A DNA stretch of 64,000 nucleotides from an uncultured Gammaproteobacteria bacterium (GCA_964551605.1 CAZKCV010000001.1:136898-200897), one strand, 5' to 3'. Positions 36,948-52,984 are shown, numbered from the stretch's first letter. A program made the numbers and translations. Notes: generated from the letters alone by a model not told the origin.

Positions 36948-39098
36948 ATGGTTAACATTATTCTGGATAGAATCATTCCCTACTCTTTTTATGCCCTCTT
37001 TTTCTTAACTCCCCTGGTTTGGTCATCTGCCAATCATGAGCTTTTTGAATATAACAAAATGATTTTAACTTATGGCCTCACTGTCATTATTGTAGGAGCC
37101 TGGCTACTTAAAGCGATTAACGAAAAACGATTAACGATCAAACGAACTCCCCTAGATATTCCACTTTTATTATTTTTGGGAGCCAATATCCTGTCTACTA
37201 TATTTTCAATTGATCCCCACACTTCTATTTGGGGCTATTATTCCCGTTCAAACGGCGGGCTTTTATCCATCATCTCCTACCTATTATTATATTGGGCGTT
37301 TGTTTCCAATATGGACTTTGAGAGAGTTAAACTTGCCTTAAAATTTGGCCTGACTTCCGGTTTTATTATTTCCCTGTGGGCAATTTTTGAACACTTTGGA
37401 GTTTCTCCGTCCTGTGTAATTTTAAGGGGGGAGTTTAATGCTTCCTGCTGGATACAGGATGTCCAGGCCCGGGTTTTTGCCACTTTAGGCCAACCCAACT
37501 GGCTGGCAGCCTATTTGGCTATGTTAATTTTCCCCACTTTGTATTTTGCTTTAACTGCTTCCCATAAACTATACGCTATACGCTATACGCTTATCGCTAT
37601 TATCTTCTACCTGGCTTTTACCTTTACTTATTCCCGGGGACCCACACTGGGACTGATTGGAGGAATGGCGGTATTTATTATTGGCTACCTCTTCTGGCAT
37701 CCTGAGGGCAAAGCCCGAAGGATCTCTGCTCTACGAAGTACTTATTTTGTAACATTTATTTCAGACCCTCACATTCGTGAGAGATTCTTCACTACGTTCA
37801 GAATGACAAAGCTAGGAGGTATTTTAATCTCTTTCTTAATAATCAACCTCCTCTTTGGCTCAGCCTTAACTTCATTTAGATTAATTTCCAAATTTGCTGC
37901 CCCGGCCAGGCCCGGGATAGCTCTCCCAACCTCAAGCGGCACCCAACTGGAGAACGGCGGTACCGAATCCGGTCAAATCCGATTTATTGTCTGGAAAGGT
38001 GCCCTGGAAATATTTAAACATTACCCGCTTTTCGGCTCAGGAGTGGAAACCTTTGCCTATGCCTATTACCAGTACCGGCCGCCGGAACATAATCTAACCT
38101 CTGAATGGGATTTTCTTTACAACAAAGCGCATAATGAATATCTGAACTACCTGGCTACCACCGGAATTGTCGGCTTTGGGACTTATTTGCTGGTGATTGG
38201 AACATTCATTTATTGGTGTATTAAAAAAATTTCTAAATCCGAATTACTAATTTCTAATCAAATCCCAAATCCTAAACCCCAATTAGGTCAATTAGAAATT
38301 AGATCAATTAGAAATTTAGTTCTTGCACTCCTTGCTGCCTATATCTCCTACTTAATCTATAACTTCTTTCTTTTCTCCGTTGTCATTATTGCCGTCTTTT
38401 TCTATCTACTTCCGGCCCTGGCCTTTGTTGCTGCAAATTCCACTATACCCTATACCCTATACCCTATACCCTACCTCTACCGGAGACCACTATATACCCG
38501 GGTAGCTAAAGGTCTGGTGATTTTTTCCATCATCTATCTTCTATATTCTATATTCCAGCTTTGGTATGCCGATACTTTATTTGCCAAAGGTGAAAAAGCT
38601 ACTGATGCCGGTAGACTGAGTAAAGCCTATGAGTTTTTAACCAGAGCCTCGGATATTAACAGGGCTGAACCGCTTTATCAATCAGAACTGGGTTTTGTAC
38701 AGGCACAGGCAGCTGCGGCTTTAAAAGATACTGATGCTTCCGCATCCGCCGATTTTAAGGACGATGCGGTTTCCCTAACTGAAAATGTCTTAGAAAAAAG
38801 TCCCCAAAATATTTCATTCTACCGGACAGCAGTCAGGACCTATTTTGAGCTTTCCCTGACAGACAATGCCTTCATCGATAAAACCCTGCAAACACTGGAT
38901 CAAAGCATAAAACTGGCTCCCACTGATCCTAAACTTTATTATAATAAAGCCTTAATTCTTGAAAGCATCGGCAAAAAAGAAGAACAAATTAGAGCTTTAG
39001 AAAAAGCCCTACAGTTAAAACCAAATTATCTGGAAGCACTGGCTCTTTTAAAAGAGGCTACCGGATCAGCCCGCCTGCCGGACGGGCAGGCTAAATAA
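36948..39098 (+). CDS. O-antigen ligase (Wzy_C)-domain polytopic membrane protein with C-terminal TPR repeats (PglL/WaaL-like)
   Basis: SRGPTLG and LFGSGVETF...HNEYLNYLATTGIVGF motifs, at least 10 TM helices, TPR-like tail. Confidence 0.7.
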   Translation: MVNIILDRIIPYSFYALFFLTPLVWSSANHELFEYNKMILTYGLTVIIVGAWLLKAINEKRLTIKRTPLDIPLLLFLGANILSTIFSIDPHTSIWGYYSRSNGGLLSIISYLLLYWAFVSNMDFERVKLALKFGLTSGFIISLWAIFEHFGVSPSCVILRGEFNASCWIQDVQARVFATLGQPNWLAAYLAMLIFPTLYFALTASHKLYAIRYTLIAIIFYLAFTFTYSRGPTLGLIGGMAVFIIGYLFWHPEGKARRISALRSTYFVTFISDPHIRERFFTTFRMTKLGGILISFLIINLLFGSALTSFRLISKFAAPARPGIALPTSSGTQLENGGTESGQIRFIVWKGALEIFKHYPLFGSGVETFAYAYYQYRPPEHNLTSEWDFLYNKAHNEYLNYLATTGIVGFGTYLLVIGTFIYWCIKKISKSELLISNQIPNPKPQLGQLEIRSIRNLVLALLAAYISYLIYNFFLFSVVIIAVFFYLLPALAFVAANSTIPYTLYPIPYLYRRPLYTRVAKGLVIFSIIYLLYSIFQLWYADTLFAKGEKATDAGRLSKAYEFLTRASDINRAEPLYQSELGFVQAQAAAALKDTDASASADFKDDAVSLTENVLEKSPQNISFYRTAVRTYFELSLTDNAFIDKTLQTLDQSIKLAPTDPKLYYNKALILESIGKKEEQIRALEKALQLKPNYLEALALLKEATGSARLPDGQAK

Positions 39099-45984: not shown

Positions 45985-46333
45985 CAAACTTTTAAGTTTA
46001 GTACTACAATTAAACTATCCTAAAGGACATTTGTAGATGGCCTAAAGGTGTCCCTACCTAGCACGTTAAAAGCCAAAATATTTTTCTTCACTGATTTGAT
46101 ACTTTACGGGAATCCGGAGTGTGTTAAAGCTTCTGCCCAAACACCAGGATACCCACCTTAGCATTGCTGAGGAAGAAATTTGGCTATCGGCTATCGTAGG
46201 GAGGAATTATTTTCTTTCTGACCTGATTGATAATTCTAAAAATTCATTAAGATGGGCTAAAAAAGTCCATTTGCTTCTGTTATTTAATTTTCCACTAACT
46301 TTTTATATCTAAACTTGATAAAATATACCTTGT

Positions 46334-47946: not shown

Positions 47947-47980
47947 TGTCATTCTGAGCGTAACGAAGAATCTCAAGATT
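47947..47980. repeat. Family B element (partial) upstream of the HTH/endonuclease-like gene
   Basis: gtcattctgagcgtaacgaagaatctcaagatt. Confidence 0.5.
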
Positions 47981-48052
47981 TAATTCACATTTACCTATTA
48001 ATTTAATTATTGACGAATATAAATCGAACCATGTAGTATGGTTATATAACAT

Positions 48053-48715
48053 ATGGCTTACAAAATGGAACTTAAGGGGAGGGCTATAAACTTAAGAGAA
48101 CAGGGTTATTCCATCAAAGAAATTGCAAAACTTCTCAGTATTGCAAAAAGCACTTCATCTGCATGGCTCAGTAATATTATGCTGTCCCCTAAGGCACAGG
48201 AAAGATTAAAGTCTCGTAGAATTTTAGGACAATACAAATCTATAGAAATCGCACGTAAAAAAAGGGTTGCGCAACAGCTAATATTAACAAATGAGGCTAA
48301 CCAACTTTTATCGAAAGTCTCAATCAATCCAGCAATATGTAAATTATGTTGCGCCCTACTCTTTTGGTGTGAAGGTGCTAAAACCAATACTCTAGTGAAA
48401 TTCACAAATTCAGACCCATCTCTAATAAAATTATTTCTTGATTTACTAAGAACAGGGTTTAAAATTGATGAATCAAAACTAAGAATCCTTATGCATTTAC
48501 ATGAATATCATGTGGAAGAGAAGCAAAAAATATTTTGGAGAGAGATCACTAAAATTCCCCTAGAACAATTCCACAGATCATATCTAAAACCTCACACAGG
48601 GAAACGGAAACATCCGAATTATCCTGGCTGCATTTCTGTAACATATTACAATGCTAAAGTTGCAAAAGAGTTAGCTACAATCTACAATACTTTTGTACAA
48701 AGGGGCGTCCGTTAA
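48053..48715 (+). CDS. HTH-domain protein, possible homing-endonuclease-like. Its 3' end overlaps tRNA-Trp.
   Basis: N-terminal HTH LREQGYSIKEIAKLL. C-terminal region is weakly LAGLIDADG-like (ALLFWCEGAK...LIKLFLDLL). The last 5 codons lie inside the tRNA acceptor stem. Confidence 0.4.
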   Translation: MAYKMELKGRAINLREQGYSIKEIAKLLSIAKSTSSAWLSNIMLSPKAQERLKSRRILGQYKSIEIARKKRVAQQLILTNEANQLLSKVSINPAICKLCCALLFWCEGAKTNTLVKFTNSDPSLIKLFLDLLRTGFKIDESKLRILMHLHEYHVEEKQKIFWREITKIPLEQFHRSYLKPHTGKRKHPNYPGCISVTYYNAKVAKELATIYNTFVQRGVR

Positions 48716-48772
48716 CTGGTAAACGGTTTCTCTCCAAAAGAAATCCTGCAGGTTCGAGTCCTGCCGCCCCTG
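48701..48772 (+). tRNA. tRNA-Trp (anticodon CCA)
   Basis: Acceptor aggggcg/cgcccct, anticodon stem tttct/agaaa with loop ctCCAaa, T-arm gcagg-ttcgagt-cctgc. Confidence 0.7.
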
Positions 48773-48785
48773 CATTATTATGAAT

Positions 48786-49175
48786 TCATTTAGCGGTGAG
48801 TTTATGGAGATCTTTGTCAAAAGTGAAAAGTTCTGCTTTTTCAATCTCAGCTTTTGAAAATAAAAAAGAATCAACAAAACTAACGTCTTCTTTTTCATAA
48901 AGAGTAAGCGCTTTGCTAAAAATATCCCGTGATTCAATATTTATATATTTTGTAGCAACTAACGGTTTTAGCTGTTTAATCACTACGGATTTATTATAAA
49001 GATAATATTTACGTAGGATGAAATCTAATTCAAAAATAGTCGCCTGGGCAACACAAAGCTTAATCTCATTACGCTTTGCTCTATTTAGTAACTGTTCACA
49101 GGCTTCTTTCTGTTGGGGAATATCATTGAGGAGAAAATGGAGTAAGACATTTGTGTCAACAATTATTGACTTCAT
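48786..49175 (-). CDS. vapC: PIN-domain toxin VapC
   Basis: IIVDTNVLL N-terminus and conserved acidic residues. 4-nt overlap with the antitoxin gene. Confidence 0.8.
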   Translation of the reverse strand: MKSIIVDTNVLLHFLLNDIPQQKEACEQLLNRAKRNEIKLCVAQATIFELDFILRKYYLYNKSVVIKQLKPLVATKYINIESRDIFSKALTLYEKEDVSFVDSFLFSKAEIEKAELFTFDKDLHKLTAK

Positions 49176-49435
49176 TTTACTTTCTCAAGTTTTTTTTCGT
49201 ATTCTTCTGCAATAGTTTTTCCTACAAAATCGTCAAGCTCTTGATTAGATAATGGTCTTTTATTCGTTTTCAGTGATCCTGCAAGTTCCAAAAAATCTTT
49301 TACCGGTTCAATAATCAACTTTTCACCCTCCAGGGAAACCAGGGCTTTTTTACCTTTATTTAATCCTAACTCCCTTCGGAATCCGGCCGGAATACTTATT
49401 TGACCCTGGGATGTAATGGAAACTGTATATGTCAT
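49172..49435 (-). CDS. vapB: AbrB/SpoVT-family antitoxin VapB
   Basis: 87 aa with a swapped-hairpin N-terminus. Upstream partner of vapC. Confidence 0.7.
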   Translation of the reverse strand: MTYTVSITSQGQISIPAGFRRELGLNKGKKALVSLEGEKLIIEPVKDFLELAGSLKTNKRPLSNQELDDFVGKTIAEEYEKKLEKVK

Positions 49436-52916: not shown

Positions 52917-52984
52917 GTCATTCTGAGCGAAGCGAAGAATATAACTTAATGATTATATCCTTCGGCTAATCGCCTCAGGATGAC
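52917..52984. repeat. Family B palindromic element (gtcattctgagcgaagcgaagaat ... cgcctcaggatgac) at the GH1/EamA junction
   Basis: Imperfect terminal inverted repeat gtcattctgagcg / cgcctcaggatgac. A related copy lies at 47947-47980. Confidence 0.6.

Follow-up and report, generated by a model that had tools for sequence, protein, structure and literature searches.

A putative LAGLIDADG homing-endonuclease-type cassette inserted between rpmG and tRNA-Trp, from a protein family strictly linked to tRNA 5' flanks

Homing endonuclease genes persist in self-splicing introns, in inteins or between phage genes. Those of the LAGLIDADG class are characterized by a sporadic presence, with decay, at one precise genomic site, and enzymes of the I-DmoI/I-CreI type sit in introns and inteins and carry no helix-turn-helix (HTH) domain. 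Conserved tRNA genes are the insertion landmark of another class of elements, the integrase-based islands and prophages, which enter the 3' part of the tRNA gene, encode an integrase and become flanked by a direct repeat of the tRNA end. WhiA (DUF199), a domesticated LAGLIDADG/HTH transcription factor, is, to our knowledge, universal in Gram-positive bacteria. Two LAGLIDADG domains precede its C-terminal HTH, and the catalytic acid and base have disappeared; in I-DmoI, D20/21 and E117 are needed for catalysis and K42/K120 stabilise the transition state, and both kinds of residue are missing in WhiA, which does not cleave DNA (PMC3384342). Two further systems associate nuclease genes with tRNA genes. 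T4 SegB is a GIY-YIG nuclease of a phage, encoded by a free-standing gene located among or beside tRNA genes and inherited with its flanks (PMC2330249). Group I introns bearing homing endonucleases, known from tRNA genes of Patescibacteria and Cyanobacteriota, are selfish elements that sit inside the tRNA, self-splice and leave the host tRNA functional (PMC13011429).

Here we analyse a gene lying directly 5' of tRNA-Trp in a 64,000-nt stretch of DNA (the window), together with its relatives in other genomes. Its family has in common with I-CreI, I-CeuI, I-MsoI and I-DmoI the LAGLIDADG fold and a helix that terminates in an acidic residue, with Gly next and Lys thereafter (E117 and K120 in I-DmoI), and with LAGLIDADG homing endonucleases as a whole the sporadic presence and decay at one precise site. 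Unlike these enzymes, the proteins, which are predicted nucleases, are encoded by free-standing genes in the 5' flank of tRNA genes, and add an N-terminal HTH, a long connecting helix and, at the 3' end of the gene, a promoter-like site for the neighbour. Compared with WhiA, the family has one LAGLIDADG domain instead of two, its HTH is N-terminal, the E-G-x-K motif is retained and its distribution is patchy and decaying; membership of WhiA/DUF199 was rejected on the single domain, the N-terminal HTH and the retained catalytic-type residues. Whereas SegB is a GIY-YIG protein of a phage, the family is of LAGLIDADG type, chromosomal (Patescibacteria, Micromonosporaceae) and precisely abuts the tRNA. 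In contrast to the integrase elements, it consists of a single 0.77-kb gene at the tRNA 5' end, with no integrase and no repeat. With the group I introns it would share the character of a tRNA-associated selfish element, the same phylum and a functional host tRNA; in contrast to them, the cassette is external to the mature tRNA and would require no more than a promoter and ordinary 5' processing. We found no mention of this family in the accessible part of the intron paper (PMC13011429), nor, in the literature searched, any description of the family or of a tRNA 5'-flank rule.

In the window, the gene is flanked on the left by rpmG (ribosomal protein L33; 47767-47934, +), a 55-aa ORF (MAKKGNRQLF...HKEIKL) whose equivalents in relatives are matched by PF00471 (Ribosomal_L33), two tRNA-Thr genes being located further upstream. 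On the right it is flanked by tRNA-Trp (anticodon CCA), detected by ARAGORN at 48701-48773 (+) and matched by Rfam RF00005 at 48701-48772 with 55.2 bits against a gathering score of 29. Only the 220-aa ORF encoding the HTH and single-LAGLIDADG-domain protein (48053-48715, +) was found between the two; bounded by these two genes, the inserted unit (∼0.77 kb) is therefore this gene alone. An earlier note on this DNA had reported that the ORF ends within the tRNA gene and had considered this overlap unusual; the observation is borne out. The 3' end of the ORF reads caa agg ggc gtc cgt taa; the last four codons (R217, G218, V219, R220) and the stop are tRNA nucleotides 1-15 (overlap of 15 nt, 48701-48715, +) as delimited by ARAGORN and Rfam, and the TAA stop falls in the D-arm. 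The overlap exceeds chance, since in other genomes, too, 30 of 33 Trp-linked homologues read into the tRNA without meeting a stop and end 2-120 nt inside it, while the other three stop upstream of it (stops range from 120 nt inside to 26 nt upstream). The tRNA-encoded tail of the ORF varies among homologues from 0 to ∼40 residues, as does its frame, implying read-through rather than a conserved or functional part of the protein.

We examined the domains of the encoded protein. Residues 1-53 (48053-48211, +) constitute a homeodomain-like/IS-resolvase-type HTH, matching HTH_Tnp_IS630 (E=1.7e-5), HTH_7, the resolvase HTH (2.8e-5), and HTH_23 (3e-5), in line with the resolvase- or IS-type HTH first read at this place. 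For the remainder, in which a weak likeness to single-motif LAGLIDADG enzymes had been noticed, an AlphaFold2 monomer model built from 51 homologues (pLDDT 92.9) places after the HTH and a long helix the succession helix-strand-strand-helix-strand-strand-helix, that is, a single LAGLIDADG-fold domain covering residues ∼88-217 (48314-48703, +). The codons E107-G108-A109-K110 (48371-48382, +) lie at the foot of the LAGLIDADG helix and specify a putative catalytic acid and base. All 16 diverse members aligned, Arg-, Gln-, Thr- and Met-linked paralogues among them, share E107, G108 and K110 without exception, and a PDB search with a profile of the C-terminal domain aligns E-G-x-K with A-E117-G-D-K120 of I-DmoI. 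It is only through this profile that I-DmoI was reached; the single protein and the full-length profile gave only HTH proteins in the PDB.

The Pfam models LAGLIDADG_1/2/3 and LAGLIDADG_WhiA do not match the window protein at E≤10, Pfam LAGLIDADG models are absent from the 25 families most frequently matched in the 51 homologues (E≤1), and none matches five distant paralogues at E≤1. When the protein and its distant relatives were run against Pfam, NCBIfam, PHROGs and PADLOC, only the HTH was recovered and no nuclease, defence or phage family, and Foldseek against the PDB gave nothing significant and no LAGLIDADG structure, the best hits being YfiB/OmpA-like folds with a TM of ∼0.27. The family is too divergent for the Pfam LAGLIDADG models or for Foldseek; despite these negatives, we take the C-terminal domain to be a divergent LAGLIDADG domain with catalytic-type residues. 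Profile searches against nuclease and transposase families, which the earlier note had advised, thus gave an alignment with I-DmoI through the C-terminal profile and, with curated models, nothing beyond the HTH. Identity with a serine resolvase or an IS transposase was rejected, only the HTH part being matched and the NCBIfam transposase models scoring 14-26 bits against cut-offs of 100-160. Members of the family appear in public records as 'resolvase', 'transposase', 'HTH domain-containing protein' or 'hypothetical'; the annotation 'resolvase' is wrong.

The family comprises 3232 representatives of 50%-identity clusters at E≤1e-3 and is concentrated in Patescibacteria (Daviesbacteria, Shapirobacteria, Gottesmanbacteria, Levybacteria, Uhrbacteria, Paceibacterota, Saccharibacteria and others). 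We assessed its linkage to tRNA genes by scanning the six-frame ORFs of all fetched loci with an HMM of the C-terminal domain, which gave 55 hits. A same-strand tRNA starts between -120 and +154 nt from the ORF stop for 53 of them. One apparent exception precedes an intron-containing tRNA that begins 3 nt past the stop of the paralogue (L024, 1350-1641) and is split by a ∼250-nt insertion in the anticodon loop; neither the split tRNA nor any intron family was detected there by ARAGORN or by Rfam (E≤1). The remaining hit is at a contig end. Hence, 54 of 54 evaluable family members in the fetched loci, Micromonosporaceae among them, are directly 5' of a same-strand tRNA, and the linkage is strict across the family. 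The tRNA differs with the subfamily: Trp(cca) for that of the window, Arg(tct), Met(cat), Thr(ggt) and Tyr(gta) for others, and Gln(ttg) in Actinomycetota. The actinomycetotal members are ∼283 aa long with a duplicated HTH, and again only the HTH matches resolvase or transposase models. In Micromonospora, Phytohabitans and Actinoplanes the gene is located 5' of tRNA-Gln(ttg)-glmU-prs (L036-L038, L159-L161), three Micromonosporaceae loci beyond the 55 hits have it before tRNA-Gln, and it is present in seven of seven Micromonosporaceae loci examined, from three genera. Two cassettes occur in some genomes: in L014 (1739-3722) two of them flank rpmG, one before tRNA-Thr and the other before tRNA-Trp, and paralogous cassettes before tRNA-Thr(ggt) and tRNA-Tyr(gta) occupy the same gene neighbourhood in L014, L055 (1-189), L077 (4753-5406, -) and L047 (1772-2404, -). 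A phage origin was considered and rejected, as no relative of the family was found in the viral contigs of IMG/VR.

Insertion at the tRNA 5' end had been proposed in the earlier note, along with a comparison of the upstream region in relatives, and this comparison bears the proposal out. We scanned metagenome contigs for the same tRNA-Trp type and obtained 120 loci, 99 of which had enough upstream DNA to be scored. The ORF is missing from 86 of the 99 (76 of these have rpmG within ∼0.5 kb upstream) and intact in nine; decayed remnants are present in about 4-5, four being scored as such and three examined in detail. In 31 distinct empty sites, 0-17 nt separate the rpmG stop from tRNA position 1, the commonest distance being 5 nt. 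Junctions this tight could not have housed a gene since lost, so they represent the ancestral condition and the ORF a later gain, inserted between rpmG and tRNA-Trp and displaying presence/absence polymorphism. In the best pair of occupied and empty loci, L007 and L055, the sequences are 84% identical upstream through tRNA-Thr and rpmG; similarity stops just past the rpmG stop and the downstream flanks differ, giving no nucleotide-exact boundary. Insertion in the style of integrases was rejected, since the inserted unit encodes no integrase and tRNA sequence is not directly repeated anywhere in the window. As a probe of horizontal spread, ORF identity was compared with rpmG identity; the two correlate weakly, with a Spearman coefficient of 0.37 and no strong outliers, rpmG offering poor resolution with its 55 aa. 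Occupied and empty alleles have the same tRNA sequence types and show no evident diagnostic difference in the tRNA.

Copies of the gene decay in place. The L145 pseudogene has undergone several internal deletions that leave pieces of its start, its middle and its last ∼20 codons, and its downstream flank is 94% identical to that of the intact L117. The remnants of L077 and L102 consist of the last 45 and the last 21 codons only. In L056, the residues K-I-A-K-T-I-H-K-L-Y-N-Q-stop look like a further-decayed, older fossil of the ORF.

The earlier note had also asked whether a promoter of tRNA-Trp is preserved inside the ORF. A sigma-70-like promoter, TTGCAA-17-TACAAT, is embedded in codons 203-212 (48660-48688, +), with the -10 box ending 12 nt before tRNA position 1. 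Taken alone the window site is insignificant in this AT-rich region (7 sites found against 5.1 expected). The pattern TTGCnn-N17-TAnnnT recurs in the equivalent codons ((V/I/L)-A ... Y-(N/H/D/Y)) of 9 of the 12 intact Trp-linked loci displayed, a tenth reading TTGGTT, and the three remnants (L077, L102, L145) have it too, as does the possible fossil L056; the embedded site lies ∼12-20 nt before the tRNA. In GC-richer genomes the motif is kept via the rarer codons CTT, TAT and CAT/GAT. All 19 motif-carrying ORFs have both of the synonymous third-position T's that the motif needs (that of TTG and the last T of the -10 box); under background frequencies and assuming independence the chance of this is 4e-8 and 7e-4, figures that overstate the support because the 19 ORFs are related and were picked for carrying the motif. 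In L145, a deletion boundary falls 3-4 nt upstream of the -35 box. The embedded promoter is not clearly seen in about one third of the Trp subfamily, nor in the Arg and Gln subfamilies. Judged from these sequences, the last codons of the ORF appear to supply the promoter of tRNA-Trp in most Trp-linked members, and the remnants would keep the 3' end of the cassette because the inferred tRNA promoter lies in those codons. Most empty sites are devoid of such a promoter and the tRNA directly follows rpmG there. Across a large clade of related genomes (L039-L158, e.g. L101, L104, L135), where just 0-17 nt lie between the rpmG stop and tRNA-Trp, the inspected upstream sequences show no promoter-like site, which implies co-transcription of rpmG and the tRNA.

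The cassette seems to have a control region of its own. A promoter-like site for the ORF, TTGACG-18-TAGTAT (48010-48039, +), is recognised from its match to the consensus, and TTGACA-type boxes occupy the same relative position in many homologous loci. Between the -10 box and the ATG lies a 10-bp perfect palindrome, GTTATATAAC (48041-48050, +), a candidate operator. Within 40 nt of the start codon and at ≤2 mismatches, it is found in 10 of 28 Trp-subfamily loci (the window, L005, L007, L009, L010, L011, L014, L016, L109 and L117) against 1.4% of control windows. That a dimeric HTH protein represses its own promoter at this palindrome is a reasonable inference.

Three other features of the neighbourhood were recorded. 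The spacer between rpmG and the ORF contains a dispersed repeat, TCATTCTGAGCGTAACGAAGAATC (47949-47972, +), with three copies in the window at ≤3 mismatches where none is expected; it is probably the 'family-B' repeat that the earlier note had placed just upstream of the ORF. Copies of this 24-27-nt repeat, TGTCATTCTGAGCGTAGCGAAGAATCT, are at 37783-37806 (-), 47949-47972 (+) and 52918-52941 (+), those checked sit directly past a gene's end, and no stable RNA fold of the repeat was found. Just 5' of the tRNA-Thr pair, the window shows a weak match to 6S RNA (46048-46206, +; 35.1 bits, below the gathering score of 46.4; E=1.5e-4). On the opposite side, two small overlapping ORFs of 129 aa and 87 aa (48786-49435, -) converge on the 3' end of tRNA-Trp and look, by the appearance of their sequences, like a candidate PIN-type toxin and AbrB/SpoVT-type antitoxin.

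On balance, we lean towards the view that the gene is a free-standing cassette of ∼0.77 kb of the LAGLIDADG homing-endonuclease type, a predicted nuclease whose niche is the 5' flank of tRNA genes. Such a cassette would have been inserted in the very short spacer between rpmG and tRNA-Trp and would bring its own promoter and candidate operator, the ORF, and a 3' end reaching tRNA position 1. As the cassette ends at the tRNA boundary and its ORF carries no stop of its own, translation would terminate inside the tRNA, at the first in-frame stop (here the D-arm TAA). The insertion would separate the tRNA from the rpmG transcript that normally carries it, and the last ∼18 codons, doubling as a sigma-70 promoter for the tRNA, would make it harmless to the host. 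The protein, probably a homodimer as single-motif enzymes have to be, may cleave cassette-less alleles at or near the rpmG/tRNA junction, where the conserved 3' end of rpmG (H-K-E-I/T-K-stop) and the 5' end of the tRNA would form an attractive split target; repair would then copy the cassette in, the conserved genes on either side serving as homology arms. The cassette would also pass horizontally between genomes, and the HTH would repress the cassette promoter at the palindrome.

The main rival to this view, and one we regard as unlikely, is that of a domesticated WhiA-like LAGLIDADG/HTH protein that no longer cuts and serves as a transcription factor for its own promoter, the tRNA promoter or both, the linkage being regulatory. 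It owes this rank to the weak correlation between ORF and rpmG without outliers, to the lack of members on viral contigs and to the occupation of all seven Micromonosporaceae loci. Yet the gene is missing from ∼87% of related tRNA-Trp loci and decays to pseudogenes, and it is unclear why six tRNAs would need private regulators encoded within 0-150 nt. That the protein acts on RNA is improbable in our estimation: it could be maturase-like, with the ORF-tRNA co-transcript or the pre-tRNA as substrate, or the overlap could itself be regulatory, RNase P cutting at tRNA position 1, taking off the stop codon and so yielding a non-stop mRNA. Some LAGLIDADG proteins are indeed RNA maturases (PMC3384342), and 30 of the 33 Trp-linked members have their stop downstream of the RNase P site, which would give stop-less processed transcripts; the frame and length of the overlap are nevertheless not conserved, three Trp-linked members stop upstream of the tRNA, the N-terminal HTH is of a DNA-binding type and the catalytic-type residues are conserved. 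Least probable of all is an ordinary, vertically inherited gene with no special relation to the tRNA, whose stop falls inside it through genome compactness. Patescibacteria do have compact genomes, and many relatives show rpmG itself stopping 0-17 nt short of the tRNA, but the family-wide linkage contradicts this reading: compactness would have to account for 54 of 54 evaluable members lying 5' of a same-strand tRNA, including distant paralogues and those of large-genome Actinomycetota, and tight rpmG-tRNA junctions with no trace of the gene favour insertion over repeated precise loss.

Two other accounts give the tRNA itself a part in the spread of the gene. In one, to which we assign a low probability, ORF and tRNA would move as one unit: the nuclease would eliminate a resident tRNA gene of like identity, the promoter-equipped copy in the cassette would take its place, and the host's reliance on the cassette 3' end from then on would give a drive with a component of addiction. 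The physical overlap of the ORF with the tRNA, whose promoter-like site it bears, speaks for such a unit, as do the three clear remnants, which preserve exactly the promoter-bearing 3' end. So does the lineage of L005 and L088, where a 39-nt 5' half of a different, canonical-type tRNA-Trp is situated directly 5' of the cassette promoter (L088 1036-1074, equivalent to L005 950-988). This half comprises the acceptor strand, the D arm and the anticodon stem and loop with CCA, no matching 3' half was found in the L005/L088 locus, and it may be what is left of a resident tRNA-Trp that was destroyed. Against this, the fragment is confined to one lineage among ∼40 occupied loci, and empty and occupied sites share tRNA sequence types, with no cassette-specific resistant tRNA allele evident. 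In the other account, speculative and somewhat less improbable, the nuclease gene and the tRNA make up a self-contained drive with addiction: either the resident tRNA gene or the rpmG-tRNA junction would be cut and the cassette copied in, after which the last ∼18 codons would be the sole promoter of a single-copy essential tRNA, leaving the gene erodible and its 3' end irremovable.

With the favoured reading, that of a free-standing homing-endonuclease-type cassette, a large family appears to use a hiding place different from those known for homing endonuclease genes, namely the nucleotide just before a tRNA gene. Were the drive with addiction true family-wide, over six or more tRNA identities and two phyla, tRNA 5' flanks would constitute a third 'safe harbour' beside introns and inteins, in which neutrality would come from the embedded promoter and ordinary tRNA 5' processing and not from splicing. 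The analysis corrects the annotation of the family and provides an example of a coding sequence under the joint constraint of a protein helix and a promoter. If the proteins are active, they would represent a new source of compact sequence-specific nucleases, each subfamily tuned to another conserved tRNA locus, and their activity would also explain part of the variable architecture of tRNA flanks in Patescibacteria. The presence of members in culturable Micromonospora makes the hypothesis open to bench testing.
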